Positions 12,307 to 27,777 are shown, counted from the stretch's first letter. The stretch is 64,000 nucleotides of DNA from Spirulina sp. (GCA_044070495.1 JBIPSI010000002.1:32001-96000), one strand, 5' to 3'. Notes: generated by a model from the letters alone, not told the origin. A program made the numbers and translations.

Positions 12307-13470
12307 ATGTACAAGTTGAAAGTGGTAATTGTGGGGGCCGGAATCGGCGGATTAACCACGGGGATTGCCATGAAGCAGGCGGGCTACCAGGTCGAGGTGT
12401 ACGACCGGGTGACGGAACTCCGTCCGGCGGGGGCTGGGATTTCCCTGTGGTCGAACGGGGTGAAGGTGCTGAACCGCCTGGGGCTAGGGGAAAAACTGGC
12501 GGCCATCGGCGGCGAAATGAACGCCATGGAATACCGCAGCCACACCGACGAACAACTGAGCTATGTCGATCTGCATCCCCTCTTCGAGCAGGTGGGACAA
12601 CGGCCCTATCCCGTCGCTAGAGCCGACCTACAGACCATGCTGCTAGAGGAATTTGGCCCCGAAAACGTCCATCTGGGGATGCCCTGTGTGGCGGTGGAGC
12701 AGGATGAGCAGTCGGCCACCGCTATCTTTGAAAACGGCCATCGGGCCACGGGGGATCTGGTAATTGGGGCCGATGGCGTCCATTCCGCCGTGCGAGCCCA
12801 CGTGCTGGGGCGGTCGGTGTCGCGTCGCTATGCCCGCTACGTCAACTGGAATGGCCTAGTCGCCGTCGATGAGTCTCTCTGCGCCAAGGATCGCTGGGTG
12901 ATCTACGTGGGCGAGAGCAAACGCGCCTCCATGATGCCCGTGGGCGGGGATCGTTTCTATTTCTTCTTCGGTGCACCCATGGTCGAAGGAACCCAGGTAG
13001 ACCCGGCCCATCGCCGCGATGAGCTAGCGGACATCTTCCAGGGCTGGCCCACCGCCGTGCAGCGCCTGATCGAAGCCATCGACCCCCACAGCACCAACCG
13101 CCTGGAAATTGGCGATATTGACCCCCTAGAGCGTCTGGTGCGAGGCCGCATTGCCCTGCTGGGAGACTCGGCCCACGCCACCACCCCCACCCTAGGCCAG
13201 GGCGGCTGCCAAGCCATTGAAGGGGCGGAGGTACTGACCCGCTATCTGCTCACCACCACCATCAGCGTGCCCGATGCCCTCAACCGCTACGAAAAGGCCC
13301 GTAAAGATCGCACCGCTGAACTCGTCCTCAAAGCCCGCAAGCGTAGCAGTGTGATCTACGGCCACGAACCCTCCGCCACCCAGCAGTGGTACCGCGACCT
13401 CAAGCAAGAACCCCCCGAATCCGTGATTAACGCCCTGGCGAAGGTGATTCTAACTGGGCCAATGGGCTAG
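12307..13470 (+). CDS. hpxO: FAD-dependent monooxygenase, urate hydroxylase HpxO-like
   Basis: GAGIGG, AGISLWSNGVK, GQRPYPVARADLQ, YVNWNGLV, GDSAHATTPTLGQGGCQA; Shine-Dalgarno AGGAGAG before ATG 12307. Confidence 0.8.
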   Translation: MYKLKVVIVGAGIGGLTTGIAMKQAGYQVEVYDRVTELRPAGAGISLWSNGVKVLNRLGLGEKLAAIGGEMNAMEYRSHTDEQLSYVDLHPLFEQVGQRPYPVARADLQTMLLEEFGPENVHLGMPCVAVEQDEQSATAIFENGHRATGDLVIGADGVHSAVRAHVLGRSVSRRYARYVNWNGLVAVDESLCAKDRWVIYVGESKRASMMPVGGDRFYFFFGAPMVEGTQVDPAHRRDELADIFQGWPTAVQRLIEAIDPHSTNRLEIGDIDPLERLVRGRIALLGDSAHATTPTLGQGGCQAIEGAEVLTRYLLTTTISVPDALNRYEKARKDRTAELVLKARKRSSVIYGHEPSATQQWYRDLKQEPPESVINALAKVILTGPMG

Positions 13471-13487
13471 GGATCACCGGATCCGCA

Positions 13488-13562
13488 GGCGAGGAGACCT
13501 TGTGTCTACGGGTTGGGTTGTTGCTGATATGAACGGGCGAGGAGACCTCGCCCCTACGGGTT
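13488..13562 (-). repeat. Two GTAG-type REP palindromes between convergent hpxO and mrpF
   Basis: GGCGAGGAGACCTTGTGTCTACGGGTT and GGGCGAGGAGACCTCGCCCCTACGGGTT. Confidence 0.7.
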
Positions 13563-13614
13563 GTCGGGTGGGGAATTGGGGTTTTCTAATACGGTTTTGC
13601 TATGGGCTATCGTA

Positions 13615-13890
13615 TTAGCTATTCATCACAGTACTCAGGCGTTTGAGAACTTGGGCTAACAACATCAGAGCCGCATTGCCGACGCTGAGAATTAAAATTC
13701 CCACCACGCCGATCATCCAGTCATCGCGCAACACCGAAATCACTAGGATCATCACCGAAGTCTTGGTGGCAATGCTGGCAAAGGCCAACATTCGCTGCCA
13801 AATGTCTTCATCGCGAAAGGCTTCCACCATGGGGATCAATAGCGCCCCAATCATGGCGATCAGCATGAGGGTCATCGGTTGACTGGTCAT
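13615..13890 (-). CDS. mrpF: Mrp/Mnh Na+/H+ antiporter subunit F-like
   Basis: 91 aa, three TM helices, overlaps the mrpE stop; position in the operon. Confidence 0.7.
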   Translation of the reverse strand: MTSQPMTLMLIAMIGALLIPMVEAFRDEDIWQRMLAFASIATKTSVMILVISVLRDDWMIGVVGILILSVGNAALMLLAQVLKRLSTVMNS

Positions 13891-14276
13891 GGGCTGGGCC
13901 TCCGGGTAATACGGTGAACTTCGTACCAGCCCTGCTCTCGGTAGTGCTGGACGATGGTTTTTGGGGTGAAGGTAATCAGAAAAATATCGAGGAAAATTAG
14001 GCTGGGGGATCGCCGAGGTTTGGCCCGTTCCACGGTCACCACTTCATGATTGTGGGGGCGAAACATGATTTCAAAGGCTTCAAAATAGGCTTGGGGAATG
14101 GCCACCACCACTTCCCACAGCGTCCGCAGCCAGTCTTTTAAACGCCCCGGATTGGTGACGCCCCTAGGCAACAGTAGGGCTACGCTCACCCCAATTAAAA
14201 TGTTAGGCCAACTGAAATCTGCTGTCAGCAAAAACCAGATGGTCAAACGCAGCAGAATGTTTAAATATCCCGTCAT
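13887..14276 (-). CDS. mrpE: Mrp/Mnh subunit E
   Basis: IWFLLT...NILIG N-terminus and LITFTPKT motif (cf. ITLTPGT). Confidence 0.85.
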   Translation of the reverse strand: MTGYLNILLRLTIWFLLTADFSWPNILIGVSVALLLPRGVTNPGRLKDWLRTLWEVVVAIPQAYFEAFEIMFRPHNHEVVTVERAKPRRSPSLIFLDIFLITFTPKTIVQHYREQGWYEVHRITRRPSP

Positions 14277-15706
14277 ACCAATACCATCCCTAATAGTCCT
14301 AAAATTGCTAGCGCCATCATGCCAATCAGATGCTCAAATTCCTCCAGCATACGGGGTAGTTTCACGGTCAATCGACGGATGAGAACCAGGTAGATTAACC
14401 ATCCCAAAAAAATTGTGGCTAGGGGTTTAAGGACGTTATCCCAAGTATAGGCTTCGTAGTACACCACGTTAGCCGCTACTAGCCCACCCAGCAACAGAAC
14501 CATCGCTGGCCAAAAACCAGATTTCACCGCTTGGCTGGGGTCAGCTTTTTGGGGTAAGAAGATGAATTTTGCAAAGGAAATAGATGTGCCTAGGGCCGCT
14601 AGATTCATGGCGATCACCTGCCAGTCTGCCAGGTTTTTCATGGTTAGCACCTTGGCCCCAAACCCTGACAATAACGGGAATCCAGAGATGGAGAAACTGG
14701 CGATCACCAGGGCAATCCAAATGGGGCGGTGAATGGGCTGATCGTGCAGGGCTTTGAAATTTCGGTTGGGCAAATTCCCAGCGCAGAGAAACAGCGCCGC
14801 CTTCACAAAACCGTGGGTGAGAGCATAGAAGCCACCCACCTCTGGAGCCGCCAACACAAACCCCATCTGGGAAATGGTGTGGAAGGCGAGCATTCGTTTG
14901 GTGTCTTTTTCAAACATGGCATAGGCTACCCCTAAAAGGGCCGTAGCCACCCCAAACAGGCGCACCAGCGGGTCAAGTTCCCCTACTAGTAAGGCCATGC
15001 GGGCTAGGGGAAAAACCCCTGCTTTGACCACCACCCCAGACAGCAGCGCCGAAACCGGACTTTCCGATTCGGAATGGGTGAGCGGTAGCCATAGACCCGA
15101 CACAAAAATACCGCCCTTGGTGAGCAGTCCTAATAGAATCAACGCCTGGGCTTCGATGGGAGCATCTGCCAACCCAGTAAACGTAAAGGACTGGCGGGTT
15201 TGGTAGACCAAAATGGCCCCCACCAGGTAAAACAGCATGGCCGTGTTGCTAACAAATAGATAGCGCAGAGCGACCCATAGGGTTTTGTCGCTGCGGGGGT
15301 AGGCAATCAGCAAAAAGGCAGCAACGCCAATCACCTCTAGAGCCACATAGAGACTAATTAAATCAGCACAGATAAAAGCCGCATTAACACTACCGTGCAA
15401 AATGATGGTCTGAGTGTAGAAAAACGATGGCTTCCCGCTGGGCCAACAGTAGAGAATTACTGCCGCCGTTACGAGGGCATTAGTCAAAATAAAAAAGGCG
15501 CTGAGGTCATCCACTAAAAGCGTGACACCAAAGCTATCGAGTAAATGGAGTTCGAGGGGGAAGGATTGAAGAAAAATCCCCCCGGCATAGGCGAGGGAAA
15601 CCAGGGTGACGCCAAAGGCCAAAAATCGGGCAGCCTGGGGCAATAGATAAATGCTAAAGCCGATAAAAAACGGCAGCGTGACCCACAGCAAGGAGCTTAG
15701 CGCCAT
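14273..15706 (-). CDS. mrpD: Mrp/Mnh subunit D-like antiporter, copy 2
   Basis: DLISLYVALEV, WLPLTHSESESPVSALLSGVVVKAG, KRMLAFHTISQMG. Confidence 0.88.
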   Translation of the reverse strand: MALSSLLWVTLPFFIGFSIYLLPQAARFLAFGVTLVSLAYAGGIFLQSFPLELHLLDSFGVTLLVDDLSAFFILTNALVTAAVILYCWPSGKPSFFYTQTIILHGSVNAAFICADLISLYVALEVIGVAAFLLIAYPRSDKTLWVALRYLFVSNTAMLFYLVGAILVYQTRQSFTFTGLADAPIEAQALILLGLLTKGGIFVSGLWLPLTHSESESPVSALLSGVVVKAGVFPLARMALLVGELDPLVRLFGVATALLGVAYAMFEKDTKRMLAFHTISQMGFVLAAPEVGGFYALTHGFVKAALFLCAGNLPNRNFKALHDQPIHRPIWIALVIASFSISGFPLLSGFGAKVLTMKNLADWQVIAMNLAALGTSISFAKFIFLPQKADPSQAVKSGFWPAMVLLLGGLVAANVVYYEAYTWDNVLKPLATIFLGWLIYLVLIRRLTVKLPRMLEEFEHLIGMMALAILGLLGMVLV

Positions 15707-15773
15707 GGCCTACCCCTCCCGGTCAATAAACCGATGCATGGATCTAGCCATGGACAGAAATTCGCAGTAGTTT

Positions 15774-17225
15774 TTACCACGACCATGACCAAACCATCCA
15801 AAATACGAAAACCAACATCACGCTCATGCCACCAATGAGATTTTCAAAGTTTTCCATCACCCTGGGGATTGTCAACGGCGTTGTTCGTATCCATTGCCCC
15901 CAGACTAGCCAGCCCGCACCAATTACCCCCAAGGCTTTGAGAACATTAAACCAGGTGAGTGTTTGCGGCAGGTAGGCCAAATTTAGGCCCACTAAAGCCG
16001 TCAGCAGCAGCAACAGTGACACCCCTAATCCAGGATTTTTGACGAAGGCCTGGAAGTCATGGCGACGGTGGGGGAGAAAGATAAATTTAGCGTAGAGAAT
16101 TGCGGTTCCCACGGCAGCGAGATTGAGTACCCAACTTTGCCAGGGCAAAACCGCCTTGAGCGTCAACATTTTGGTGCTAAAGCCAAGGAATAAGGGAAAC
16201 CCTGAAATCGAGAGACTAGCTAGGGTAATGGGGAGCCAAAGCTGAGTGTCGATGGGATTTTGGCGCAGGGTGGGCAGGTCGCGGCTGGGCAAGTTACCCA
16301 CTCCAAGGAAGAGGGCCGCTTTACCGAGGCCATGGGCCAAGGCGTAGGGGCCAGCCACACTGGGGGCGACTAACACCCAGCCCAACTGCGAGAGGGTGCT
16401 ACAGGCCAGAACGCGCTTGGTATCGCGGTCAAAGAGGGCATAAAGTACCCCCAGCAGAGCCGCAGCCATGCCAAATAATCTGACGAGGGGAAGTAACTCC
16501 TCCATCATCAAGGCACAGCGCACCAGGGGAAATACCCCCGCCTTGACGACCACCCCAGACAACAGGGCCGATACCGGGCTTTCCGATTCCGCGTGGGTGA
16601 GGGGGAGCCACAACCCCGACACAAAAATCCCCCCTTTGGCCAGCAGCCCCACCACAATTAAAACCAGCGCTTCAAGGGGAGCATTGAGCAGCCCAGAAAA
16701 GGCAAAGGACTGGTTGGATTGGTAGACCAAAATGGCTCCTACCAAGTAGAACAACATGGCCGTATTACTGATAAATAGGTAGCGCAGAGCCACCCATAGG
16801 GTGCGGTCTTGGCGAGGGTAGGCCACCAAAAGGAAGGCGGCAATTCCAATCACCTCCAGGGCCACGTATAGGCTAATGAAATCAGCACAGATAAAGGCCG
16901 AGTTGAGACTGCCGTGGAGAATGATGGCCTGGGTGTAGAAAAATGAGGTTTTTGGGGTGCGCCAACAGTAGAGAATGACCGCCGCCGTTACGAGGGTATT
17001 CGTCAGAATAAAAAAGGCGCTGAGATTGTCAATGAGAAGAATAACCCCAAAGCTATCCAACAGATTTAAATTAAGGGAAGCCGGATGCAGAAACACCCCT
17101 AGGGTGTAGGCCAAGGAGACCAGCGTTACCCCCAAGGCTAGGACGCGGTCAGCCTTGGGCAAGAGATAAATACTAAACCCAGCCAACAGGGGCAGGGTAA
17201 TCCAGATAACGGTAAATATTGTCAT
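15774..17225 (-). CDS. mrpD: Mrp/Mnh subunit D-like antiporter, copy 1
   Basis: Paralog of 14273-15706: DFISLYVALEV, WLPLTHAESESPVSALLSG, KRVLACSTLSQLG. Confidence 0.88.
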   Translation of the reverse strand: MTIFTVIWITLPLLAGFSIYLLPKADRVLALGVTLVSLAYTLGVFLHPASLNLNLLDSFGVILLIDNLSAFFILTNTLVTAAVILYCWRTPKTSFFYTQAIILHGSLNSAFICADFISLYVALEVIGIAAFLLVAYPRQDRTLWVALRYLFISNTAMLFYLVGAILVYQSNQSFAFSGLLNAPLEALVLIVVGLLAKGGIFVSGLWLPLTHAESESPVSALLSGVVVKAGVFPLVRCALMMEELLPLVRLFGMAAALLGVLYALFDRDTKRVLACSTLSQLGWVLVAPSVAGPYALAHGLGKAALFLGVGNLPSRDLPTLRQNPIDTQLWLPITLASLSISGFPLFLGFSTKMLTLKAVLPWQSWVLNLAAVGTAILYAKFIFLPHRRHDFQAFVKNPGLGVSLLLLLTALVGLNLAYLPQTLTWFNVLKALGVIGAGWLVWGQWIRTTPLTIPRVMENFENLIGGMSVMLVFVFWMVWSWSW

Positions 17226-17578
17226 GGCTCATACCCCTTTTCGATGACGCGAGTTTCTAGGGTGGGGTTATCCCTGGCTAATTTCATCACCCCTACCAGC
17301 ATCAAGGCCTGAATCGAAAAGCCGATGACAATGGCCGTTAAAATTACCGCCTGGGGTACAGGGTCAGCATAGGAGGACTTAGGCGTTTCGGTGAGAATGG
17401 GGGTGTACACTCCGGTTCTAGCCGCCACCAGAACAAACAGCGCAACAACTCCAGTACTCATCACATCCATGGCGATAATTTTCATCACCAGATTTTCCTT
17501 GAAGATAATGCCCAAAAAGCCCATCAAAATCGTGGCATAGACGCAGGCATAAAGTATGGTATCTCCCCCTAGCTGCAT
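17222..17578 (-). CDS. mrpC: Mrp/Mnh subunit C
   Basis: NLVMKIIAMDVM and ADPVPQAVILTAIVIGFS motifs. Confidence 0.92.
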   Translation of the reverse strand: MQLGGDTILYACVYATILMGFLGIIFKENLVMKIIAMDVMSTGVVALFVLVAARTGVYTPILTETPKSSYADPVPQAVILTAIVIGFSIQALMLVGVMKLARDNPTLETRVIEKGYEP

Positions 17579-17636
17579 TTTGGTTTAGCTCCCCTCAATT
17601 ACGGCGTTGATAACGTCTAGATTACGACTTAACCTT

Positions 17637-18710
17637 TTAAGATTGTGTAACGAGCCAGGTTAACCCCGTGGCCATAACAATAATTTGTAAACTCAGCAAA
17701 AGCCAATCAGCCCACATCACCCGCCTTGTCCAAACCTCCTCATTTTTATCGACCCAGTAGGCGGTAACAATCACCTCGACAATGGAGGCAAAAATCAGGA
17801 TGTAGGCAATCACGTAGATTTCATCCATCAGCACGAGATAGCCTAAGTCGGGGAGGGCATCTGCATAGGTTTCTTGCAGAAAAACGGTGGTGAGTAGGGC
17901 TGTCACTGGCAGCGCCACCCGTGAATCAATATGCTGGGGTGCGAGCAACAGAGCGGCACAGCTTGAGGCCAATACAATCAACAGCGGCAACAACAATTTC
18001 CAAGTAAAGAAGCTCCAGGGGCGGGCAATATTGAGGGAATAGCGCAGCACCGAATGTTCTGACCGACTCGGCAAACGGGGATCGCCAAAGTTGGTGTCGT
18101 AGGTTCTCACCAGGCTATCGATGGTGGAGCCTACAATTGACCAGCCGGGGATGGTTAAAAACTGGGAATAGCCCGATGCCTCGTCATCCGCGACATAGAT
18201 AAGTTGATCTGTGGTGTAGGCCGAGTTCTCCATAAAAATGCTGAGGTTGTACTGATCGAGGGGATAGCGTTTGAGGTCAAAGGATTGGAGGAAGCGCCCT
18301 TCTACCCGTGAGATTTGGTAAAAACTGCCATCGGGCAACCGTTCTGGCTCAGGGTGGGCGGGGACAGACATCATCGACCAATCGCTAATGCTGTTGGTGA
18401 CTTCTAAATAGGTGATTGGGTCAATATCTCCTTGCCACTTAAACCACATATAGAAATCGGCATAAAAAGAATTGCTTTTGAGATCGATATCGTAAATGCT
18501 GACGGCAAAAATTCCGGTTTCTACCCGCTCGACTTGGGTGGATAGGGAGACGGGCTGCCTCGGAGAAGCTGGGGGCAAAAATGACCACTGACCTAGGCTA
18601 ATTTTGAGGCTGATGAGGAGGATTCCTACACCCAAAAGCAATAGCATAGACAGAGCCTTTGGAAAGTTCTCTGTGACTTCAGTCCACCGCCGAAATGGAA
18701 ACAGATGCAT
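17637..18710 (-). CDS. Pentameric ligand-gated ion channel subunit (GLIC/ELIC-like), copy B
   Basis: Beta-sandwich pattern VETGIF...FYADFYMWFKW, Pro-loop DLKRYPLDQYNL, IPGWSI, pre-M1 Arg and M1 WKLLLP, M2 DSRVALPVTALLTTVFLQE, M2-M3 loop LPDLGYL, then M3 and M4. Confidence 0.88.
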   Translation of the reverse strand: MHLFPFRRWTEVTENFPKALSMLLLLGVGILLISLKISLGQWSFLPPASPRQPVSLSTQVERVETGIFAVSIYDIDLKSNSFYADFYMWFKWQGDIDPITYLEVTNSISDWSMMSVPAHPEPERLPDGSFYQISRVEGRFLQSFDLKRYPLDQYNLSIFMENSAYTTDQLIYVADDEASGYSQFLTIPGWSIVGSTIDSLVRTYDTNFGDPRLPSRSEHSVLRYSLNIARPWSFFTWKLLLPLLIVLASSCAALLLAPQHIDSRVALPVTALLTTVFLQETYADALPDLGYLVLMDEIYVIAYILIFASIVEVIVTAYWVDKNEEVWTRRVMWADWLLLSLQIIVMATGLTWLVTQS

Positions 18711-18880
18711 CGCCAACGTCCAGCAAAGATGGAGTCAGTTTAGCGCTTCTATCCCCTTCACTCTATCCCTTTTCCCAAGACGGTTATCGCTCATACATAG
18801 GGCTGAGGGGAGATCCCAGGGTTCTTACTGGCAATCGGTTAAGGAACCTGTCCAGCGGTGACAGAACCCTGGGATCTAAG

Positions 18881-20290
18881 TTATGAGGCAGGGTCGGCCT
18901 TGGCGGCAACGGCATCTTCCTCGGAGCCTTTGAAGGCGATACGGAGGAAGGGTGGGGCCAGGAAGGTGGTGGCAATCACCATGATGATGATGGCCGCTTC
19001 CAGGGGCTTGGACAGCACGCCGCTGGCGGAACCGATGCCCGCAAATACCAGGCCCACCTCACCACGGGGCACCATGCCGATGCCGATGGCCAGTTTATTG
19101 AGTTGGGCTTGGCCGAAGGTGGTCCAGCCCGTGATCACCTTGCCCAGAATGGCGACGGCCAGCAGGAAGACCGCAATCACCAGGCCTTCGCGGTTGGCGG
19201 GAACGGCGGGGTTGAGCACACCCAGGTCGGCCTTGGCCCCCACGGTGACGAAGAAAATCGGCACCAGGATGTCGGCGATGGGCATCACTTGGCGATCCAG
19301 TTCCTTGCGCTTGTCGGTTTCATCCAGCACTAGGCCAGCGGCGAAGGCTCCCAGAATGGCCTCCAGGTGAATGACGTTGGCCAAGAAAGCCATCAAAAAG
19401 GCGAAGGTGAGGGCGGGGATGACCAGGTTGCCGCGCGTTTGCAGTTTGTCGGCAATGGCGACGAAGGAACTGTTGAAGAATTTACCCAGGAAGATGGCCC
19501 CCAGCAGGAACCCGGTGGCGCTGACGATCAGGTAGATGACGTTCATCACGTCTACCTCGCCCGTTTTGGCTAAGCTAGCGACCACAGCCAGGACAATGAT
19601 GCCCAACACGTCGTCAATCACCGCCGCACCAACGATGATTTGCCCTTCGGCGGATTTAAGCTGGCCAATTTCCGACAGCACCTTGGAGGTAATGCCGATA
19701 CTGGTGGCGGTCAATGCGGCCCCGGCAAAGATAGCGGGAATGGTGGGCACATGGAACAGGGTCATCAGCCCTACGGTGCCCAGGGCAAAGGGGGCGGCCA
19801 CACCGACAACGGCCACAATCGCCGCCTGGTAGCCCACTTTTTGCAGTTCGCGCAGGTCGGATTCTAGGCCGATCTCAAACAATAGGATGATGACGCCCAG
19901 TTCTGCCAGCACCGAAACCACTTCGCTCTGGCTGTGGAAGACCTCGGTGACCGCTTCGGGGGACAATCCACCCAGCCATTGCAGCAGGTGCATCAGTTGA
20001 GAATCCGCCGCCATCGCCCCGCTTTCGGGGAAAACAATCAGGTTCAGGGCGGAGGTACCCACAATCACCCCGGCCACCAATTCCCCCAGCACCGGGGGCA
20101 GGTCTACCAGGCGAGACAGTTCGCCCCCCAGTTTGCTGGCGATGTAGATCACCACCAGGCTGAGCAGAACCCCAGCTAGGACAAGCGGCCCAACTTCGGC
20201 ATCCACTTCAGGAGCCGCCGCCAGCAGTCCCCAGGATGCGGCGGCCTCTAGCCCCCTCGAAATCATCGTCACACCATTCAAATCAACCAT
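18881..20290 (-). CDS. nhaS3: CPA2-family Na+/H+ antiporter NhaS3
   Basis: LVLAGVLLSLVVIYIASKLGGEL, ATSIGIT, AAVIDDVLG, GMVPRGEVG; GAGG Shine-Dalgarno before ATG 20290. Confidence 0.9.
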   Translation of the reverse strand: MVDLNGVTMISRGLEAAASWGLLAAAPEVDAEVGPLVLAGVLLSLVVIYIASKLGGELSRLVDLPPVLGELVAGVIVGTSALNLIVFPESGAMAADSQLMHLLQWLGGLSPEAVTEVFHSQSEVVSVLAELGVIILLFEIGLESDLRELQKVGYQAAIVAVVGVAAPFALGTVGLMTLFHVPTIPAIFAGAALTATSIGITSKVLSEIGQLKSAEGQIIVGAAVIDDVLGIIVLAVVASLAKTGEVDVMNVIYLIVSATGFLLGAIFLGKFFNSSFVAIADKLQTRGNLVIPALTFAFLMAFLANVIHLEAILGAFAAGLVLDETDKRKELDRQVMPIADILVPIFFVTVGAKADLGVLNPAVPANREGLVIAVFLLAVAILGKVITGWTTFGQAQLNKLAIGIGMVPRGEVGLVFAGIGSASGVLSKPLEAAIIIMVIATTFLAPPFLRIAFKGSEEDAVAAKADPAS

Positions 20291-20377
20291 AGATACCTCT
20301 ATCGAATCTCCGTCAAATCTCTGGCAAATCTGTATCAAATCCGCGTTAGGGCGACCGTGGCCCATCGCCCCAGGATA

Positions 20378-21451
20378 TTAGCTCCATAAAATCAACCCTA
20401 TGGCCCCCAAGAAAATCGCCACAATTTGCCCAATCAGGAGCCAGCGATCCACCTTGATCACTTGGTGATACCGTTCCGGTTTCCCTTCCTTAATCCAGTC
20501 GGCAGTGAGAATCGCCTCGGCGATGGAAAGAAAGATCAAAACGTAGGCGATCACGTAGATCTTATCCATCAAGACCAGGTAGCCAATATCGGGCAGACTT
20601 GAGGAATAGGACTCCTGCAAAAATACCGTGGTCAGCAGGGCGGTGACGGGGAGGGCAATGCGAGAATCGCTGTATTCAGGATTGAGCAGCAGCGATCCCC
20701 AACTGGAGGCCACCACGATCACTAGGGGCAACAGCAACTTCCAAAGAAAGAAGCTGGGGGGTCGAGCAATTTGAAGGGAATACTTGAGAATCGAATGCTG
20801 GGCTCCATCGCCTAGGCGAGTATCTCCAAAGTTAGTGCTGTATTCGCGCAGCAGCGTCTCCAGTTTAAACCCCATAATGCGCCAGCCAGGAATCGCCAAG
20901 GTCTCGGAGTAGCCCGACTGATCGGGTTCTGCCACGTAGACTAAATCATCGATGGTGTAGGCAGAGTTTTCCAAGATAAGGCTTAAATAATGGCGATCCA
21001 AAGGGTATCGAGCCAGGGAAAGGGGCTGCACAAAACGGCCCTCAACCCGCCAAATTTGGTATTGACGATTATCCTCTAAAATTTCAGGCTCCTCATAGGT
21101 CGGCGTGATCACCATGCCCCAATCATCCACCCCATTGGAAAACTCCAACTGAGCGAGGGGATCAATGTCCCCCTGCCACTTAAACCAGGCATAAAAATCG
21201 GCGTAGTAGGTATTGCTGGATGGATCTAAATCGTAGACATTCATCGCAAACAATCCGGTTTCAACAATTGCAGATTGGCTCGGTACCGTGGTCAGGGGTT
21301 GGAAGACATGGTAGAGATCCACCCCGTCCTCCGATTGTCGTAATCCCAGTTGGAGTAGAACCGTAACTAGAGCAACGCTTAGGGCGGCGAAGACAAAGGT
21401 ACGGGCTTTGTGCCGTCTACTCCAAGGCAAAAGTTGGTGAAGAAAATGCAT
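20378..21451 (-). CDS. Pentameric ligand-gated ion channel subunit (GLIC/ELIC-like), copy A
   Basis: VETGLF...YYADFYAWFKW, Pro-loop SLARYPLDRHYL, IPGWRI, ARPPSFFLWKLLLP, M2 DSRIALPVTALLTTVFLQE, LPDIGYLVLMD, M4. Confidence 0.88.
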   Translation of the reverse strand: MHFLHQLLPWSRRHKARTFVFAALSVALVTVLLQLGLRQSEDGVDLYHVFQPLTTVPSQSAIVETGLFAMNVYDLDPSSNTYYADFYAWFKWQGDIDPLAQLEFSNGVDDWGMVITPTYEEPEILEDNRQYQIWRVEGRFVQPLSLARYPLDRHYLSLILENSAYTIDDLVYVAEPDQSGYSETLAIPGWRIMGFKLETLLREYSTNFGDTRLGDGAQHSILKYSLQIARPPSFFLWKLLLPLVIVVASSWGSLLLNPEYSDSRIALPVTALLTTVFLQESYSSSLPDIGYLVLMDKIYVIAYVLIFLSIAEAILTADWIKEGKPERYHQVIKVDRWLLIGQIVAIFLGAIGLILWS

Positions 21452-21488
21452 GGTCTAGGGGGCGTAACAGGGCCATTCGGCAGGGGTA

Positions 21489-21589
21489 GAGGTAGGGTGG
21501 CAGTGCCCACCCTAAGGTTCCTAGGAAATATACCCCCGCCATCGGCCCATCCTACTGCCCCGGAGGTAGGGTGGCAGTGCCCACCCTAC
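21489..21589. repeat. Cluster of GTAG-type REP palindromes between bicA and pLGIC-A
   Basis: GAGGTAGGGTGGCAGTGCCCACCCTA at 21489-21514 and 21563-21588, plus a degenerate copy ending CCCATCCTAC at about 21538-21555. Confidence 0.75.
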
Positions 21590-21593
21590 GGAG

Positions 21594-23297
21594 CTAGAGC
21601 ATGCGGGGCACTTCCGATCCGGCGGTATCACCGGAGTAGTCGATGCCGTCGATGGCCGCGAGGACTTTGAGGGAGGCCTTCAGGGCTTCGGCGCGGGTTT
21701 GGACGAGGTGTTTGGCGGGGACAAACCGCAGCACACCTAGTTTTTCTAGGCGTTTCAGGGTTTTGCCCTTCGCGCCAACCAGGAACACCTGCCGTCCGGC
21801 GTCCGCCGCATCTTGGATGGCGTTTTCTAGGGCCAGGGCCGCTGTCACGCCCAGGTGGGGCACGTCTTGCAAGTCCACAATCAGCACATCGTGGTCTTCC
21901 ATGGCGGTATGTTCTTGGGAAATGGCCCGTGCCACGCCGAAGATCATGGGGCCATCCAGGTGGAAGAGCAGAATCCGGCCCTTAGCCCGATCCATGAGGG
22001 CGCTTTCTTCGTCGTTGAGGGGAAAGTCGCCGTCGAAGTCGGTGATGGTTTTTACGCCCTCTGATTGCAGGCTGCTGAGGCGGTCGATGGTGAGCATGTT
22101 GGCGATGAACACGCCCACCCCCACGGCCACAATCAAGTCCACAAACACGGTCAGGAACATCACCCCGTACATAATGGCGGTGCCCTTCCAGGACACATGG
22201 TGCGCCCGCTTCAGGAAGCTCCAGTCCAAAATATCGAAGCCGACCTTGACGGCAATCCCCGCTAGCACCGCCAGGGGAATCACCTTGGTGAGCGGAGCCG
22301 CCCAGAGAACGACCACCAGCAGAATCGCCGCCCGAATCAGACCCGACAGCGCCGTGCGGCCCCCGGCCTGGATGTTGACCACCGTCCCCATGGTGGCCCC
22401 AGCACCGGGCATCCCGCCAAACAGACCGGACATCAGGTTGCCGATCCCTTGGCCAATCAGTTCTTTGTTGGGGTCGCTTTGGGTGCGGGTAATGCTGTCG
22501 GCAATCATCGCCGTCAGCAGGGCATCAATACAGCCCAACATCCCCAGCACCAAGCCATCCACCAGCATCACCCGCAGTTGGTCGGCGCTGAACATGGGCA
22601 GTTGCAGCGTCGGCAATCCGGTGGGAATTTCCCCAATCAGGCGCAGATCGGCATTGGCAAACACCGTCAGGGCCAGAATCGTCCCGGCCACCAGCACCAA
22701 CAACTGAGGCGGTACCCAGCGCTTTAACTGCTTCGGCATCAGGAACAGCACCGCCAGGGAGAACACCCCCAGGGCCACCTCCGCCGGATCGAGGGTGCTG
22801 ATTAGCGTCGGCAAACTGGTGAGGGTGCCGACCACGCCGCCCTTGGGAGTGGCATGGCCCAAAAATGGCCCCAGTTGCAGGATAATTAGAATCACCCCAA
22901 TGCCCGACATAAACCCAGAAATCACCGGGTAGGGCATGAGGGTAACGTAGCGCCCCAGCTTGAGAAATCCAAAGATAATCTGGAAAAAACCCGCCAGCAT
23001 GGCGACCGTAAAGGCCATGGCCATACCATTTTCGGGATTGGCCGCCACCAGTTGAGCGATCACAGCGGTAAACACCACCGTCATCGGCCCCGTAGGTTCA
23101 GAAATTAGCGTGGGTGTGCCCCCAAACAACGCCGCAAAAAAGCCCACGATCACAGCCCCATAGAGACCGGATGCAGGCCCAGCCCCAGAGGCCACCCCAA
23201 AGGCCAGGGCCATCGGTAGCGCAATCACCGCTGCGGTGACGCCCCCAAACAAGTCACCCCGCCAGTGGCGGAAGCTAATTCGATTTGTGATGCCCAT
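21594..23297 (-). CDS. bicA: SulP/SLC26 Na+-dependent bicarbonate transporter BicA
   Basis: MGITNRISF...RGDLFGGVTAAVIALPMALAFGVASGAG, ISEPTGPMT, GCIDALLT, GAGATMGTV, C-terminal STAS domain (GPMIFG). Confidence 0.92.
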   Translation of the reverse strand: MGITNRISFRHWRGDLFGGVTAAVIALPMALAFGVASGAGPASGLYGAVIVGFFAALFGGTPTLISEPTGPMTVVFTAVIAQLVAANPENGMAMAFTVAMLAGFFQIIFGFLKLGRYVTLMPYPVISGFMSGIGVILIILQLGPFLGHATPKGGVVGTLTSLPTLISTLDPAEVALGVFSLAVLFLMPKQLKRWVPPQLLVLVAGTILALTVFANADLRLIGEIPTGLPTLQLPMFSADQLRVMLVDGLVLGMLGCIDALLTAMIADSITRTQSDPNKELIGQGIGNLMSGLFGGMPGAGATMGTVVNIQAGGRTALSGLIRAAILLVVVLWAAPLTKVIPLAVLAGIAVKVGFDILDWSFLKRAHHVSWKGTAIMYGVMFLTVFVDLIVAVGVGVFIANMLTIDRLSSLQSEGVKTITDFDGDFPLNDEESALMDRAKGRILLFHLDGPMIFGVARAISQEHTAMEDHDVLIVDLQDVPHLGVTAALALENAIQDAADAGRQVFLVGAKGKTLKRLEKLGVLRFVPAKHLVQTRAEALKASLKVLAAIDGIDYSGDTAGSEVPRML

Positions 23298-23349
23298 CGC
23301 CAGCACCTAAATCCTTTTATTGAAGTTAATAAATGTTGAAAACTTTTGC

Positions 23350-23365
23350 ATCGACAAAAGTCTAT
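23350..23365 (-). promoter_or_regulatory. NdhR/CcmR-like operator (ATAG-N8-CTAT, one mismatch)
   Basis: Minus strand ATAG-ACTTTTGT-CGAT in the AT-rich region about 55 bp upstream of the bicA start. Confidence 0.6.
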
Positions 23366-23452
23366 ACATAGAACCATAACATCTCCGTTCGGCAAATCTC
23401 ACGGGATCTACGATTGATTTTCCTGATAGGGGTGAAAAGCTGGTGGAATAAC

Positions 23453-23848
23453 CTAATCGCGCTGTTCGAGGTGCTGGCGGATAGCCTTAAGCTCCTCCAG
23501 AATTTGCCGCAACAGGTCGGTGGTGACGGTTTCTGTGGCGGGCTGCACCTGAATCACGGGCTGAAGCCCCAGTACTTCCTCAGCAAAGCGGCGCACCTCC
23601 TGGGGCCGAAACACCAAGGGTTCGTCCTTATTCTGGCGTAGTTCGGGGTTGAGTTTTCTGGGATCGTAGGGCGGGTTGAGGAGGTCGGGGTCGGTGTTGG
23701 CGTAGCGGTAGACCGAGGCCCGCGAGCGGTTGAGATAGCGCTGCACGTCGTCAATGGTCAACCCCGACTCTGGGGTCGGGAAGGTAGCCCCTAAGCTGGG
23801 CTTGGTAACGTTGGACAATTCGCTGGGGGAAAAATCGGGGAAACTCAT
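23453..23848 (-). CDS. Small HTH protein (excisionase/HTH_17-like; cyanobacterial 'resolvase'-annotated family)
   Basis: LTIDDVQRYLNRSRASVYRY HTH and C-terminal amphipathic helix; no catalytic recombinase domain visible. Confidence 0.7.
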   Translation of the reverse strand: MSFPDFSPSELSNVTKPSLGATFPTPESGLTIDDVQRYLNRSRASVYRYANTDPDLLNPPYDPRKLNPELRQNKDEPLVFRPQEVRRFAEEVLGLQPVIQVQPATETVTTDLLRQILEELKAIRQHLEQRD

Positions 23849-24043
23849 GACGGCAGCGGCGCAAACCTAGGGTGCTGTTGGGGTGACGCGATATTCGTTG
23901 GTTACTTTAGCAGGTTCAGCCGAGTACTCCTTATATTCTAGAGCGGGCAATTGTTCTGGGGCTATTGCCCCGTTAGAACCTCGAACGGGCTACTATTTGA
24001 GGGAATTTGGTCAGGGAGATTTGGGCGAATCCGCCGATTGGTC

Positions 24044-26650
24044 ATGGTACACAAGCGCCTAGAACCGTTCCTCAGTCGAAAGCGCGTGGCCGTGGTAGAA
24101 GCCTGCGTGATTGGGCTGGTGTCGGGGCTGGCGGCGGTGTTGCTGAAGCAGGGAGTAGAATGGCTGACCCTGTGGCGTACGAATACGACCCTGCCTCTAT
24201 GGGTGGCGCTGCCGCTGATTGGCCTGGGGGGCGGCTATCTATCGGGCTGGCTGGTAGAGCGACTGGCCCCGGAGGCATCGGGCAGCGGCATTCCCCAGGT
24301 GAAGGCGGCGCTGGGGTTTGCCAAGATGCCCCTAAATTTGCGGGTGGCGCTGGTGAAATTGGTCAGTACCCTTTTGGCCCTGGGGTCTGGGCTGTCTTTG
24401 GGGCGGCAGGGGCCAACGGTGCAGATTGGGGCGGCCCTGGCGGCGCAGCTTAGTCGTTGGGTGCCCACTTCGCCGGAGTATCGGCGGCAGCTCATTTCGG
24501 CAGGAGCGGCGGCGGGGCTGGCGGCGGGGTTCAATGCGCCCATTGCCGGGGTGTTGTTTGTGGTGGAGGAACTGCTTCAGGATTTTTCCGACCTCACCCT
24601 GGGCAGCGCCATTTTGGCCTCGTTTATTGGAGCAGTGGTGTCGCGGCTGCTGGGGGGGCAGGGGCTAAACCTGGTGATGGAGGCCAAGCCCGTTAGCCTG
24701 TCGGTCTATGACCTGCCCTTTTTGGTGGTTTTGGGATTGCTGGCGGGACTGCTGGGGTCACTGTTTCGGCGGGGCATTTTTGGCAGCTTGGCCTTTTTTA
24801 GGCAATTTAAAACCCTCGGCCTGCCCGGTCGCATTGGCCTAGCAGGGCTGGTGACGGGGCTGGTAGGGGTGTTTGTGCCCGTGGCCGCTGTGGATAATAC
24901 GGGTCTTCAGGAATTTCTGGTGACCGGATCGGCGGGCTGGAAACTGATTGCCGTGGCCTTTGTCGTCAAGTTTTTGCTGACCCTGCTGGCCTACGGCTCT
25001 GGGGCGGCGGGGGGTATTTTTGCGCCCTCCCTGGTGCTGGGGGCGGCACTGGGATGCCTAGTGAGTTTTTTGGCCCAGGGAGCCTACACGGGATTTGGGG
25101 CATGGCCGATGCCGGAAGCCCTGGGCAGCACCACCACCTACGCCCTCACCGGGATGGGAGCCTTTTTTAGCGCGGTGACGGGGGTGCCGATTACGGCCAT
25201 CGTCATCGTGTTTGAGATGACCGCCAACTTTAATCTGGTGCTGCCGCTGATGATTGGCTCCGGTATCGCCTACCTGATTGCCGACCGGGCCAACCGAGGC
25301 TCCATCTACAATCGCCTGCTGGAACTGAAGGGCATCCACCTGGAACCTGTGGCCCAGGCCAATAATCCCTGGGCACACCTCACCGCCGCCGACCTGATGC
25401 AGCGCCGGGTAGAAACCCTCTCCAGCCAGATCACCCTACCGGAAGTCGTGCAGGCTTTTTCGAGATCCCACCATCGCGGCTTTCCGGTATTGGAAGAAGG
25501 GCGACTGGTGGGCATCGTTACCCAAAGCGACCTGGGTGAGGCCAGCAGTCAGGGGCTAGAACCCTACCTCACCCTGAAGGATTTGATGACGCCCCACCCC
25601 GTCACCGTGGCCCCCGATGCGCCTCTGCCCAGGGTGCTACACCTGCTGAACCGCCTCAAGCTCAGCCGTTTGCCCGTCACCGAGGGCAACAAACTGGTGG
25701 GCATCATCACCCGTGCCGACATCATCCGGGCCGAGTCGGATCAAGTCAGCGGCGACCTGCCAGAACTTGGCCCCCAGGCCGAACCCTCCTACGTCGTCTT
25801 CCAGCAACGCGCTCCGGCCACGGGGCAGGGTCGTTTATTGGTGCCCCTAGCCGACCCCCAAACCGCCCCCGACTTAATCAAAATTTCCGCCGCCATTGCC
25901 CACGGTCTGCACTACGAATTGGAGTGCGTCCATGTGGTGCGGGTGCCGCGCAGTGTCGCCCCCGCCGAAGCCAGGGTAGACCTGCAAACGGCGGAACCCC
26001 TGCGCCAACTGGCCCTCTCCTACGCCGAACACAGTGGCCTGTCGGTGCATTTCCAAGTCCGCGCCGCCCACGAAATTGGCCGCACCCTGCTGGAAGTCAT
26101 CCGCGACCGCCACATCGACCTCGTCCTCATGGGCTGGCACCACCCCACCCTCACCCCCGGTCGCGTCATCAACAGCGTGGTGGATACCCTGATTCGCCAA
26201 GCCCCCTGCCAGGTGCTCGTCGTCCGCCCAGGCCGCAACCTCAGCTTTAACCACTGGCTGCTACCCACGGCGGGCGGCCCCAATGCCCAAAGCGCCCACC
26301 GCCTGCTGCCCGGACTGATCACCCTCGGCAAAACCCCCGACGTTCACCTCTGCACCATCTGCCACCCCGAACAGGGCAAATGCCTTACGCCGCAGTACCT
26401 CTCTACCCTCGCCGATGACCTCGAAGCCGCCCTGAATCGGCCCGTCCGTACCCATGTCGTCACCCACACCTCGGTATCCGAGGCCATCCTCGACCTCTCC
26501 CAACAGTGCCAAAGCGACGCCATTCTGCTGGGGGCTTCCCGTGAAAACCTGCTCAGCCAAGTGCTGAAGGGCAACGTGCCCCTAGAAATTGCCCAACAAA
26601 CCGATATCACGATCATCCTGCTGCGCCAAGTGGAGGATGAGAGCGAGTAG
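24044..26650 (+). CDS. CLC-family chloride channel/transporter with a CBS pair and tandem USP domains
   Basis: GSGIP, GRQGP, GFNAPIAG, GIFAP, SIY; CBS motifs (HRGFPV, LSRLPV); USP-like LLVP...DLVLMG and DAILLGA. Confidence 0.92.
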   Translation: MVHKRLEPFLSRKRVAVVEACVIGLVSGLAAVLLKQGVEWLTLWRTNTTLPLWVALPLIGLGGGYLSGWLVERLAPEASGSGIPQVKAALGFAKMPLNLRVALVKLVSTLLALGSGLSLGRQGPTVQIGAALAAQLSRWVPTSPEYRRQLISAGAAAGLAAGFNAPIAGVLFVVEELLQDFSDLTLGSAILASFIGAVVSRLLGGQGLNLVMEAKPVSLSVYDLPFLVVLGLLAGLLGSLFRRGIFGSLAFFRQFKTLGLPGRIGLAGLVTGLVGVFVPVAAVDNTGLQEFLVTGSAGWKLIAVAFVVKFLLTLLAYGSGAAGGIFAPSLVLGAALGCLVSFLAQGAYTGFGAWPMPEALGSTTTYALTGMGAFFSAVTGVPITAIVIVFEMTANFNLVLPLMIGSGIAYLIADRANRGSIYNRLLELKGIHLEPVAQANNPWAHLTAADLMQRRVETLSSQITLPEVVQAFSRSHHRGFPVLEEGRLVGIVTQSDLGEASSQGLEPYLTLKDLMTPHPVTVAPDAPLPRVLHLLNRLKLSRLPVTEGNKLVGIITRADIIRAESDQVSGDLPELGPQAEPSYVVFQQRAPATGQGRLLVPLADPQTAPDLIKISAAIAHGLHYELECVHVVRVPRSVAPAEARVDLQTAEPLRQLALSYAEHSGLSVHFQVRAAHEIGRTLLEVIRDRHIDLVLMGWHHPTLTPGRVINSVVDTLIRQAPCQVLVVRPGRNLSFNHWLLPTAGGPNAQSAHRLLPGLITLGKTPDVHLCTICHPEQGKCLTPQYLSTLADDLEAALNRPVRTHVVTHTSVSEAILDLSQQCQSDAILLGASRENLLSQVLKGNVPLEIAQQTDITIILLRQVEDESE

Positions 26651-26681: not shown

Positions 26682-27719
26682 CTAGGGAAGCCAGCCCTGG
26701 CTCCTGAGCCGTTCCCAGGCAACCTTGAGATGCTGAGGCTTAAAGATTTGACGCTTGCGATCACTCCAGGCTTGTACCCCATCGATGGCAACCGCCACAT
26801 CTATGGCGGCTTGGGGGTTGTGCTTAGCGACCCAATGCACCGTCGCCAGCATCTCCATGCCGTAGGGGGTCTCAAACCCTTCAATGAGCTGACTCACCTG
26901 ATCGAGTCGCTGGTGGGCATCGGGATGGTCGGCCAAAAACGTGGCGGCAGCCTCTCGGCCCTGGGGTAGCACGGTAATTTGTGACCGCTGGGAGCGATCC
27001 CCGTAGCCCTGGATGTAGTGTCCATCAATGCGCTGAAGGGCGTGGTTGAGCTTGTCGGCGTAGGGGCCGTAGTGGTGTGGCTTAAACTCCAGCTTCAGAC
27101 CCGGCTCACCCGCTTCCTGGAGTAGGTAAGCTAGCTTTTGGGCCTCCAGACGCCCCAGGCGATAGCCCGGTATGCCATAGCGATCAAACAAAGACACCAC
27201 CAGCGCCCGTGATCGGGTCATGGGTGGTTTTGAGGTATTGACCTGCACCTGGGCAGCGGCGGGGGCACCTCCCGGCTCAAACAACATGACAGTTATGGCG
27301 GGCAGATCCGCGAAAGCCTCGACAATCAGCGGCTTCACCACCGCCCAATCCAGCCCCCCATTGCCACAGCCCAAGGGCGGAATCGCAATCGATGCTAACC
27401 CCAACCGTTGCACCTCGGCCACCAAGGCCACCAGTCCTGCCTGAATGTCCTCTAGTTTTGATTTGCCCTTCCAGTGGCGCTTGGTGGGAAAGTTGATGAT
27501 GTAGCGCGGATTAAACAGGTTGCCCGTGGCCACGGTGAACATCCGACCGGGCTGCACCTCCCCCTGATCACAGGCCCGCTTATATTGCTTAAAGTTCTCT
27601 GGGAAAGCCTGCTTAAACTGCAAGGCAATACCTTTACCCATCACCCCAACACAGTTCACGGTGTTGACCAGGGCTTCAGCCTTTGCTTCAAGTAGGTTGC
27701 CTTGCCGAAACTCAATCAT
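26682..27719 (-). CDS. darG: DarG antitoxin (macrodomain DNA ADP-ribosyl glycohydrolase plus C-terminal domain)
   Basis: GNLL...ALVNTVNCVGVMGKGIALQFK, INFPTKRHW, IAIPPLGCGNGGL; C-terminal QKLAYLLQ, YGPYA, GFETPYGMEMLATVHW. Confidence 0.92.
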   Translation of the reverse strand: MIEFRQGNLLEAKAEALVNTVNCVGVMGKGIALQFKQAFPENFKQYKRACDQGEVQPGRMFTVATGNLFNPRYIINFPTKRHWKGKSKLEDIQAGLVALVAEVQRLGLASIAIPPLGCGNGGLDWAVVKPLIVEAFADLPAITVMLFEPGGAPAAAQVQVNTSKPPMTRSRALVVSLFDRYGIPGYRLGRLEAQKLAYLLQEAGEPGLKLEFKPHHYGPYADKLNHALQRIDGHYIQGYGDRSQRSQITVLPQGREAAATFLADHPDAHQRLDQVSQLIEGFETPYGMEMLATVHWVAKHNPQAAIDVAVAIDGVQAWSDRKRQIFKPQHLKVAWERLRSQGWLP

Positions 27720-27777
27720 GTCTTAATTGCTTGCCAGTTAATACTATTGTACTGTGATTGTGTAACGAAAGCTAACG

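Follow-up and report, generated by a model that had tools for sequence, protein, structure and literature searches.

GLIC and ELIC, prokaryotic members of the pentameric ligand-gated ion channel family (pLGICs), are structural models for human neurotransmitter receptors, and to our knowledge the cellular role of prokaryotic pLGICs is essentially unknown. In a 64,000 nt stretch of DNA from Spirulina sp. (GCA_044070495.1 JBIPSI010000002.1:32001-96000; hereafter the window, with coordinates counted from its start), two genes for divergent members of this channel family, here called A and B, are interleaved with those of a bicA-nhaS3-mrp operon, i.e. with genes for a Na+-dependent bicarbonate transporter, a Na+/H+ antiporter and Mrp antiporter subunits. 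An operon of this kind is described from Synechococcus sp. PCC 7002, in which bicA (A2371), napA (A2372) and the MNH genes A2373-A2380 are given as part of the CcmR regulon, up at 0.04% CO2 (PMC12789804), and in which the A2371-A2380 operon is likewise given as a CcmR regulon member that rises at 0.04% CO2 (PMC10096703). The window operon resembles that of PCC 7002 in running from bicA to a CPA2 antiporter to mrp/mnh genes behind a candidate LysR-type box, and differs from it in the two interleaved channel genes, A2373-A2380 being listed in the paper as MNH genes, and in an mrp part of five genes (C, D, D, E-like and F-like) rather than eight. The operon is of the known bicA-napA-mnh kind and the interleaving of channel genes is its new part. 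The first-pass annotation of the window could recall no description of such an arrangement, and this has held for the literature searched, in which no paper was found linking pLGICs with bicA, antiporters or operon context, subscription journals lying outside the coverage.

Channel B is kept in the operon under purifying selection across several species, to judge from comparison with its orthologs, and channel A is a second insertion specific to the window genome. The explanation towards which we lean, tentatively, is that A and B are accessory gated channels, probably cation-selective, that were recruited twice to a CcmR-type low-carbon operon and would tune its Na+ cycle.

The operon and its genes

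Nine open reading frames (ORFs), all co-oriented on the minus strand and spanning 13615-23306 in the ORF listing of the window, follow one another in the order bicA, channel A, nhaS3-like, channel B, mrpC, mrpD, mrpD and two small membrane ORFs:

21594-23306, minus strand: bicA, Na+-dependent bicarbonate transporter of SulP/STAS architecture, 570 aa counted from GTG 23306, with an ATG at 23297
20378-21451, minus strand: pLGIC-A (P0001), 357 aa, Pro-loop pentameric channel homolog, a genome-specific insertion
18881-20290, minus strand: nhaS3-like CPA2 Na+/H+ antiporter, 469 aa from the probable start ATG 20290, the ORF being open to 20365
17637-18716, minus strand: pLGIC-B (P0002), 359 aa from TTG 18716 or 357 aa from ATG 18710, paralog of A
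17222-17578, minus strand: mrpC, Pfam Oxidored_q2, NF005620 at 180.6 bits against a cut-off of 91
15774-17225, minus strand: mrpD copy 1, Proton_antipo_M, NF005564 at 704.6 bits against a cut-off of 439
14273-15706, minus strand: mrpD copy 2, Proton_antipo_M, NF005564 at 807.3 bits against the same cut-off of 439
13887-14276, minus strand: orf129, MrpE-like small membrane ORF, 129 aa, weak NCBIfam MrpE match (E 0.005)
13615-13890, minus strand: orf91, MrpF-like small ORF, 91 aa, so labelled from its size and about three hydrophobic stretches judged by eye

The spacers in transcription order are 142, 12, 164, 58, -4, 67, -4 and -4 bp, and the nine co-oriented genes with gaps of at most about 170 bp seen in the first-pass annotation are confirmed, the largest spacer being 164 bp. 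The 12 bp between channel A and nhaS3 becomes 87 bp with the nhaS3 start at ATG 20290; this is probably the true start and the ORF over-extended, since homology with relatives begins at 20227-20191 and the resulting 469 aa equal the length of the relatives' proteins. Family scans (Pfam, NCBIfam) gave names for seven of the nine ORFs, with the channels matched only below cut-off. BicA scores 932.3 bits with the NCBIfam equivalog NF050096 (cut-off 880) and matches Pfam Sulfate_transp and STAS, and the nhaS3-like protein matches Pfam Na_H_Exchanger at 1.2e-67 and the CPA2 model TIGR00932 under that model's cut-off.

The names first given to bicA, the nhaS3-like gene, mrpC, the two mrpD copies and the channel homologs stand, and the mrpE and mrpF labels of the last two genes are weakly supported by their sequences. 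No Pfam or PDB match was found for orf129, and none in the Pfam or NCBIfam family models for orf91; a PDB match of orf91 to designed alphaRep proteins was judged spurious, orf91 being hydrophobic. The position of orf129 after mrpD is kept across cyanobacteria, and a counterpart of orf91 closes the cluster in other cyanobacteria too. Mrp subunits A-G are not encoded together here, where C, D and D lie above cut-off and the E-like match is weak; mrpG (PF03334) and mnhB (PF04039) lie on another contig (C1, 155876-157357), so that the Mrp genes are split over at least two loci and the local mrp block would be an incomplete antiporter alone.

The channel proteins

By sequence and modelled fold A and B are assigned as true pLGIC homologs, and to a divergent subfamily because their E-values are significant and curated cut-offs are nonetheless missed. 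The two are 57% identical across 304 residues. Searches with phmmer against all PDB chains give E 1.1e-17 for A and 4.4e-19 for B, with matches to GLIC-GABA-A chimeras, GLIC, ELIC and many GABA-A subunits, and the alignment of B to GLIC covers residues 53-323, that is, both domains. The search with PF02931/PF02932 profile models suggested along with the first-pass annotation does return matches, all of them below cut-off (18-21 bits against 26-28): PF02932 gives 19.0 and 21.1 bits against 28.1 and PF02931 18.3 bits against 26. Likewise TIGR00860 gives 74.7 and 62.5 bits against a cut-off of 280, and NF033918 60.4 and 36.3 bits against 500.

For A, a 22-row family alignment yielded an AlphaFold2 model with a mean predicted local distance difference test score (pLDDT) of 82.8 and a predicted template modelling score (pTM) of 0.71, which comprises ten strands, an N-terminal helix at 8-38 and four C-terminal helices at 232-255, 261-283, 289-321 and 325-356. 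Foldseek aligns this model in the PDB with GLIC, GluCl, GlyR and ELIC at E about 1e-19 and probability 1.00, over 316-360 columns with TM-scores of 0.49-0.62 and 16-21% identity, and the comparison of a predicted structure with GLIC thus points to the pLGIC fold. Both proteins carry, numbered from the ATG start, YPLD at 149, IPGW at 187, IARP with the pre-M1 Arg at 228 and LLLPL with the M1 Pro at 239; together with the model these motifs uphold the signature originally claimed for both genes (YPLD, Trp, pre-M1 Arg, M1 Pro and four transmembrane helices). The Pro-loop Cys pair is missing from both A and B, as in prokaryotic members.

Read off the B-GLIC alignment, the pore would be lined by Asp -2', Ser -1', Arg 0', Ala 2', Thr 6', Leu 9', Phe 13' and Glu 16', with Asp falling on Glu-2', Thr on Ser6' and Leu on Ile9' of GLIC. 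A published account that lists the pore rings of GLIC locates the charge-selectivity filter towards the cytoplasm, at that end of the pore, where the cation-selective GLIC has Glu-2' (PMC3590989). Since the Asp sits on this Glu-2', within the filter region of that account (PMC3590989), the A/B pore is most likely cation-selective, as read from one alignment.

A and B resemble GLIC and ELIC in their predicted beta-sandwich outer domain, Pro-loop without a Cys pair, four membrane helices and very short M3-M4 link, and GLIC in particular in the acidic -2', hydroxyl 6' and hydrophobic 9' pore positions, the host of this proton-gated channel, Gloeobacter violaceus, being likewise cyanobacterial. 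Unlike GLIC and ELIC, they have Arg 0', Phe 13' and a long loop C with an invariant Y...FG motif, and their family, which scores under the Pfam/NCBIfam cut-offs, is a clade of its own, highly conserved and spread over at least nine phyla. This family counts at least 280 proteins at E up to 0.001 in a word-indexed search, mostly unnamed or called 'hypothetical protein'; its alignment has a mean column identity of 57% and 55 invariant columns, with many aromatic or charged outer-domain residues. Both window channels are intact and full-length and keep every listed invariant residue of the family.

Channel B in the genus

The genus was sampled with 53 genomes, counting that of the window, which belongs to a Nodosilinea-like lineage. 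Any member of the channel family is found in 12 of the 53, and channel B in the operon in seven (the window genome included, one copy being a pseudogene). The B orthologs of the six other genomes are 77-87% identical and occupy the same operon position, and these six B-bearing relatives are exactly the six with a BicA at least 95% identical to that of the window. The window genome has only two family members, both in the operon. Fourteen genus stretches were fetched, namely 13 bicA loci and one channel-only locus, and three of the 13 bicA loci carry B in the operon. In one close relative (L034) B follows bicA-nhaS3, mrp is not adjacent, and the next gene is an unrelated DUF3611 gene on the other strand. 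The outcome, raised at the start, that the linkage would be found only in this strain thus applies to channel A, which is unique to the genome, and fails for B.

The ratio of nonsynonymous to synonymous substitution rates (dN/dS) of B is 0.10-0.12 against five intact orthologs, compared with 0.04-0.06 for bicA and 0.06-0.07 for nhaS3, values that point to purifying selection on B in its operon position.

Insertion history

Synteny with four relatives is collinear except from 21594 to about 20227, the segment that holds A, which is therefore an insertion of about 1.4 kb specific to the window genome. No A ortholog above 60% identity was found in the 52 other genus genomes, and a metagenome scan with P0001 gave nine loci, none above 60% identity. 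The closest protein to A is P0003 (77%), known from contigs of at most 1857 bp that give no context, and the two pair in the tree with a support of 99. The B clade has a support of 100 and a long stem (0.65 with FastTree, 1.04 under a mixture model), and the grouping of A and B as sisters has a support of just 72. The window B is nested inside the B clade and the B-bearing relatives are all without A, so that the more parsimonious history is one in which A was gained later.

The edge of the A insertion is marked by a duplicated element resembling repetitive extragenic palindromic (REP) sequences:

21493-21588, minus strand: two exact copies of a 22-nt palindrome, at 21567-21588 and 21493-21514, in the bicA-A spacer, REP-like, at the insertion edge

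The two matches of this palindrome compare with 0 expected by chance, and a single similar palindromic element stands after bicA in L121 and L034 and after nhaS3 in L124 and L126. Tandem C- and G-rich palindromic repeats, similar to miniature inverted-repeat transposable elements (MITEs), occur in two relatives (L022:8150-8400 and 9780-9960; L018:2070-2250), in the same two operon spacers that hold channel A and the post-nhaS3 hairpin in the window. From the presence of such REP- and MITE-like repeats, and because the spacers vary from genome to genome, the post-bicA and post-nhaS3 spacers are read as hot spots for small mobile repeats and insertion.

The GC content of third codon positions (GC3) is 0.75 in bicA and nhaS3, 0.58-0.60 in the channels (0.60 in A) and 0.59-0.67 in the mrp genes, a composition split inside the operon that suggests different expression levels or a mosaic history. 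Synonymous divergence (dS) from relatives is 0.34-0.50 for bicA and nhaS3 and 0.4-1.9, varying between genome pairs, for the channels and mrp genes.

Regulation and transcription

The box reported upstream of the cluster in the first-pass annotation is present and conserved:

23350-23365, minus strand: ATAG-N8-CGAT box, candidate operator of the CcmR/NdhR type, 52 nt ahead of the ATG of bicA (23297)

Thirteen of 16 distinct genus genomes, and L081 as well, have the exact box at this offset, the remaining three of the 16 having variants of one to several bases at the same place, and this constancy of position argues for a conserved cis element rather than chance. The NdhR consensus is ATAG-N8-CTAT; in the window the second half-site is CGAT, not CTAT. 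At distant cyanobacterial loci the form ATAG-N8-CTAT stands further upstream in three cases, and in five an exact match is missing.

In none of the four spacers on either side of the channel genes did consensus scans place a terminator-like or a sigma-70-like site; their totals were 11 terminator-like sites against 14.6 expected and three promoter-like sites against 7.4 expected. The bicA-A spacer is strongly structured (-80.5 kcal/mol, z -4.27), that between B and mrpC is unstructured, and the nhaS3-B spacer (z -2.18) holds one hairpin:

18812-18876, minus strand: hairpin with a 14-bp stem and no U-tract, right after the nhaS3 stop, not called a terminator

An Rfam scan of 13000-24500 gave no match at E up to 0.1. 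Expression of the channels would most likely come from transcription reading through from the bicA promoter, at a level below that of bicA and nhaS3, and lower downstream expression fits the lower GC3 of the channels (0.58-0.60 against 0.75) and the strong hairpins after bicA and nhaS3.

Three metatranscriptome runs contain contigs of relatives only. Two of the runs, from a single study, each have one contig in which 20191 is joined to 21603, so that the end of bicA and the start of nhaS3 of a relative meet without A, and parts of B are covered by contigs with 86-91% identity to the window; such contigs prove neither a single transcript nor transcription as such. The bins of channel A are uncovered in four sequencing runs, an observation that has no evidential weight.

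Proposed role

According to the reading we lean towards, a widespread operon (CcmR/NdhR-type box, bicA, nhaS3, mrpC-D-D-E-F) was extended twice in one Nodosilinea-like lineage. B came into the spacer between nhaS3 and mrpC in an ancestor shared by a small subclade, and A into the bicA-nhaS3 spacer later, in this genome only, beside the duplicated REP-like palindrome. Each subunit is predicted to have an N-terminal signal or anchor helix, an outward beta-sandwich with the YPLD Pro-loop and four membrane helices, and to assemble into pentamers; A and B subunits might form a heteromer. The pore would stay closed until a periplasmic cue, perhaps pH, a divalent ion or some small ligand, opens the channel, and this gated route for Na+/K+ would serve to complete, or else to trim, the Na+ cycle and the membrane potential that BicA symport and NhaS3/Mrp antiport would set up at low inorganic carbon (Ci) or high pH. 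Ca2+ is one candidate cue, as background only, because bicA, an NhaS3-like gene and mrp genes of Anabaena are reported to respond to Ca2+ shifts (PMC4915528).

A more far-reaching version, which we regard as unlikely, would make the pLGIC a working part of the carbon-concentrating mechanism (CCM), co-induced with BicA at low CO2, opened by a carbonate-linked periplasmic cue (pH, Ca2+ or bicarbonate/carbonate) and providing a gated return path for Na+ or other cations that balances BicA uptake against NhaS3/Mrp extrusion.

How widely channels and operon are linked

The reading of A and B as recruited accessory channels has to be weighed against a number of findings, the first of which concern the narrowness of the linkage. 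The window NhaS3 is matched in 291 of 301 genomes of the class, and the operon was surveyed in the best-matching 40 nhaS3 places, one each from 40 genomes outside the window's own. bicA adjoins nhaS3 in 30 of these 40 cyanobacterial loci and the full co-oriented bicA-nhaS3-mrpC-D(-D)-E-F is present in 17, with two more holding all three parts rearranged, and a channel gene is present in none of the 40. The backbone is common in cyanobacteria, the channels are no part of it, and the module dispenses with them nearly everywhere. The same holds for the genus bicA loci fetched from outside the subclade, 10 of 10 of which lack a channel, five of them being bicA-nhaS3-mrp loci with a gap of 380-510 bp at the B position, between nhaS3 and mrpC.

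Species-representative genomes of Cyanobacteriota, Pseudomonadota, Verrucomicrobiota, Chloroflexota, Thermomicrobiota, Ignavibacteriota, Bacteroidota, Actinomycetota, Bacillota and Spirochaetota contributed 80 loci to a survey of the channels' own neighbourhoods, to which nine metagenome loci were added. When the nine proteins of the window were run in tblastn, orthologs of bicA, nhaS3 or cluster-type mrp turned up beside the channel at four of the 80 (L011, L018, L022 and L034), all four from close relatives of the window genome with a BicA identity of 96-97%. The other 76 genome loci and all nine metagenome loci are without bicA, nhaS3 or mrp, in unrelated and heterogeneous contexts, and the survey proposed with the first-pass annotation therefore gives no general linkage of pLGICs to these genes. 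Distant MrpD-like matches of 24-30% identity are all that is seen at L020, L021, L023 and L031, those at L020 and L031 being NDH-1 subunit genes. Pfam, run on 128 of the 284 neighbours that lie no more than two genes from a channel (those of loci L001-L038), showed unrelated functions, and a conserved partner of the family was rejected after all-against-all clustering of 519 neighbour ORFs from the 80 loci, none being common to more than seven. What stands of the proposed low-Ci/Na+/pH module is that channel homologs, B among them kept in place by purifying selection, are embedded in a bicA-nhaS3-mrp cluster behind a conserved box; as a general module it is not supported, the linkage being confined to one subclade and absent from the 40 nhaS3 loci and from nearly all channel loci.

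Further points against the recruited-channel reading come from within the lineage. The B copy of one relative (G339; L123:5290-6240) has an in-frame stop, frameshifts and a deletion of about 100 bp by which the Pro-loop region is lost, between intact nhaS3 and mrpC genes, in a genome that is 89% complete, so that these defects may be assembly error. Transcription could end at the hairpins that follow bicA and nhaS3, the 142- and 164-bp spacers upstream of the channels are long enough for promoters of their own, and a TAAACT-containing segment about 35 nt before the B ATG, conserved among orthologs, could be an internal promoter of B. A search of sequencing runs found no RNA run of this organism. 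Lastly, the proposed role needs tight gating, since a cation channel left open would run down the Na+ gradient of the operon.

The main rival reading makes the channels passengers that landed in repeat-rich spacers by REP-/MITE-associated recombination, with their own promoters and a function unrelated to carbon uptake, the one they would also serve in the many bacteria whose family members lie elsewhere, at a position that is tolerated and not selected. This is a serious possibility, given such weight because in nearly all cases the module does its work with no channel and because B is being lost in one lineage. It agrees with the heterogeneous neighbourhoods of the family, in which no neighbour is shared across the 80 loci, with the one-subclade linkage, with the G339 pseudogene and the conserved TAAACT segment, and also with the variable REP-/MITE-like hot spots after bicA and nhaS3 and the channel GC3 of 0.58-0.60 between genes at 0.75. 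It would, however, require two separate gains of a family uncommon in the genus (12 of 53 genomes) in one 10-kb operon, with no copy elsewhere in the genome, and it is opposed by the retention of B at a dN/dS of about 0.11 across five species-level genomes, by its place beside nhaS3 in L034 even where mrp is not adjacent, and by spacers without a consensus promoter or terminator.

That the channel genes are instead non-functional insertions heading for loss, with no present role, is highly improbable: the G339 pseudogene, the occurrence of A in a single genome and the long stem branch to the B clade would fit such decay, but both window genes are intact and full-length with the listed invariant residues kept, the dN/dS of B is about 0.11, and the structural model is confident (pLDDT 82.8).

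A further alternative, which we consider quite unlikely, assigns B to Mrp rather than to BicA, as a cation re-entry route for acidification of the cytoplasm by Mrp at high pH, with A a later, duplicate-like addition. In alkaliphilic Bacillus, voltage-gated Na+ channels provide Na+ re-entry for Mrp-dependent pH homeostasis; the likeness, of analogy only, lies in a gated cation channel that completes an Mrp-driven Na+ cycle, and the Bacillus channels differ in being voltage-gated and of an unrelated family, with no genetic linkage implied. B lies 58 bp upstream of mrpC across an unstructured spacer and shares with the mrp genes a low GC3 (0.58-0.67) and a dS (0.6-1.8) higher than the 0.34-0.50 of bicA and nhaS3, and the 380-510 bp nhaS3-mrpC gap in B-less genus genomes suggests that mrp is a sub-unit of the cluster. 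Yet in L034 B stays by bicA-nhaS3, with the DUF3611 gene next on the other strand; all 19 of 19 non-genus bicA+nhaS3+mrp clusters and three nhaS3-mrpC-D loci are without a channel; and the block, with mrpG and mnhB on another contig, is not a complete antiporter alone. Recruitment of A and B as accessory, probably cation-selective channels of the low-carbon operon is the reading that we tentatively retain.

Other channel neighbourhoods and neighbouring genes

At one locus of an uncultured cyanobacterium (L031:3249-11044) a channel is found with ndhF3, an ndhD-type gene (subunit M family), chpY, a divergent 165-aa ORF and a LysR gene, and with a Ca2+/H+ exchanger upstream, a loose second proximity of a channel to carbon-uptake genes. 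The channel follows the LysR gene and lies 1.8 kb and two genes from ndhF3-ndhD3-chpY. The link was treated as weak because the LysR protein is distant from PDB chain 5y2v (E 1e-12, not the top match), which we take to be NdhR, and is paired with the divergent 165-aa ORF. Planktothrix loci were also rejected as a carbon-uptake link, the nearby Proton_antipo_M genes being of ndhD1/ndhF1 type and on the opposite strand. In Microcoleus (L003:8037-10116, L004:7537-9575, L005:10001-11824) an ORF with EF-hand Ca2+-binding motifs comes close after the channel homolog, in L003 overlapping it by about 25 nt and fused to a urea-transporter fragment, and these EF-hand neighbours give a hint that some family members may act in Ca2+ signalling.

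In the window, homology with relatives extends through a 131-aa ORF upstream of bicA (23453-23848, minus strand; weak helix-turn-helix match), across which a gene at 23951-26650 (plus strand) is transcribed away from the bicA cluster; it encodes an 899-aa fusion of a ClC chloride channel/exchanger with two CBS and two universal-stress-protein domains. At 26682-28419 (minus strand) follow the genes of a DNA ADP-ribosyltransferase and a glycohydrolase, a DarT/DarG toxin-antitoxin pair in which each member exceeds its NCBIfam cut-off. Further ion transporters within 25 kb are a CPA1 Na+/H+ antiporter (32923-34512, minus strand) and a Ca2+/Na+ antiporter (44063-45157, plus strand).

Significance

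The narrow linkage forbids generalising from this locus to pLGICs or to carbon-concentrating mechanisms, and the locus is a testable lead on bacterial channel function that does not by itself establish the channels as members of the pathway. It offers a concrete, testable setting, i.e. a channel under purifying selection in a well-understood operon whose PCC 7002 counterpart is low-CO2-induced, and one B carrier, Phormidium sp. FACHB-1136 (L022), has a name of culture-collection style. The analysis also marks out a large and very conserved pLGIC subfamily that is missed by curated Pfam/NCBIfam cut-offs. If a channel of this subfamily did prove to be a working part of the CCM, that would be the first physiological job for a prokaryotic homolog of the Cys-loop receptors.

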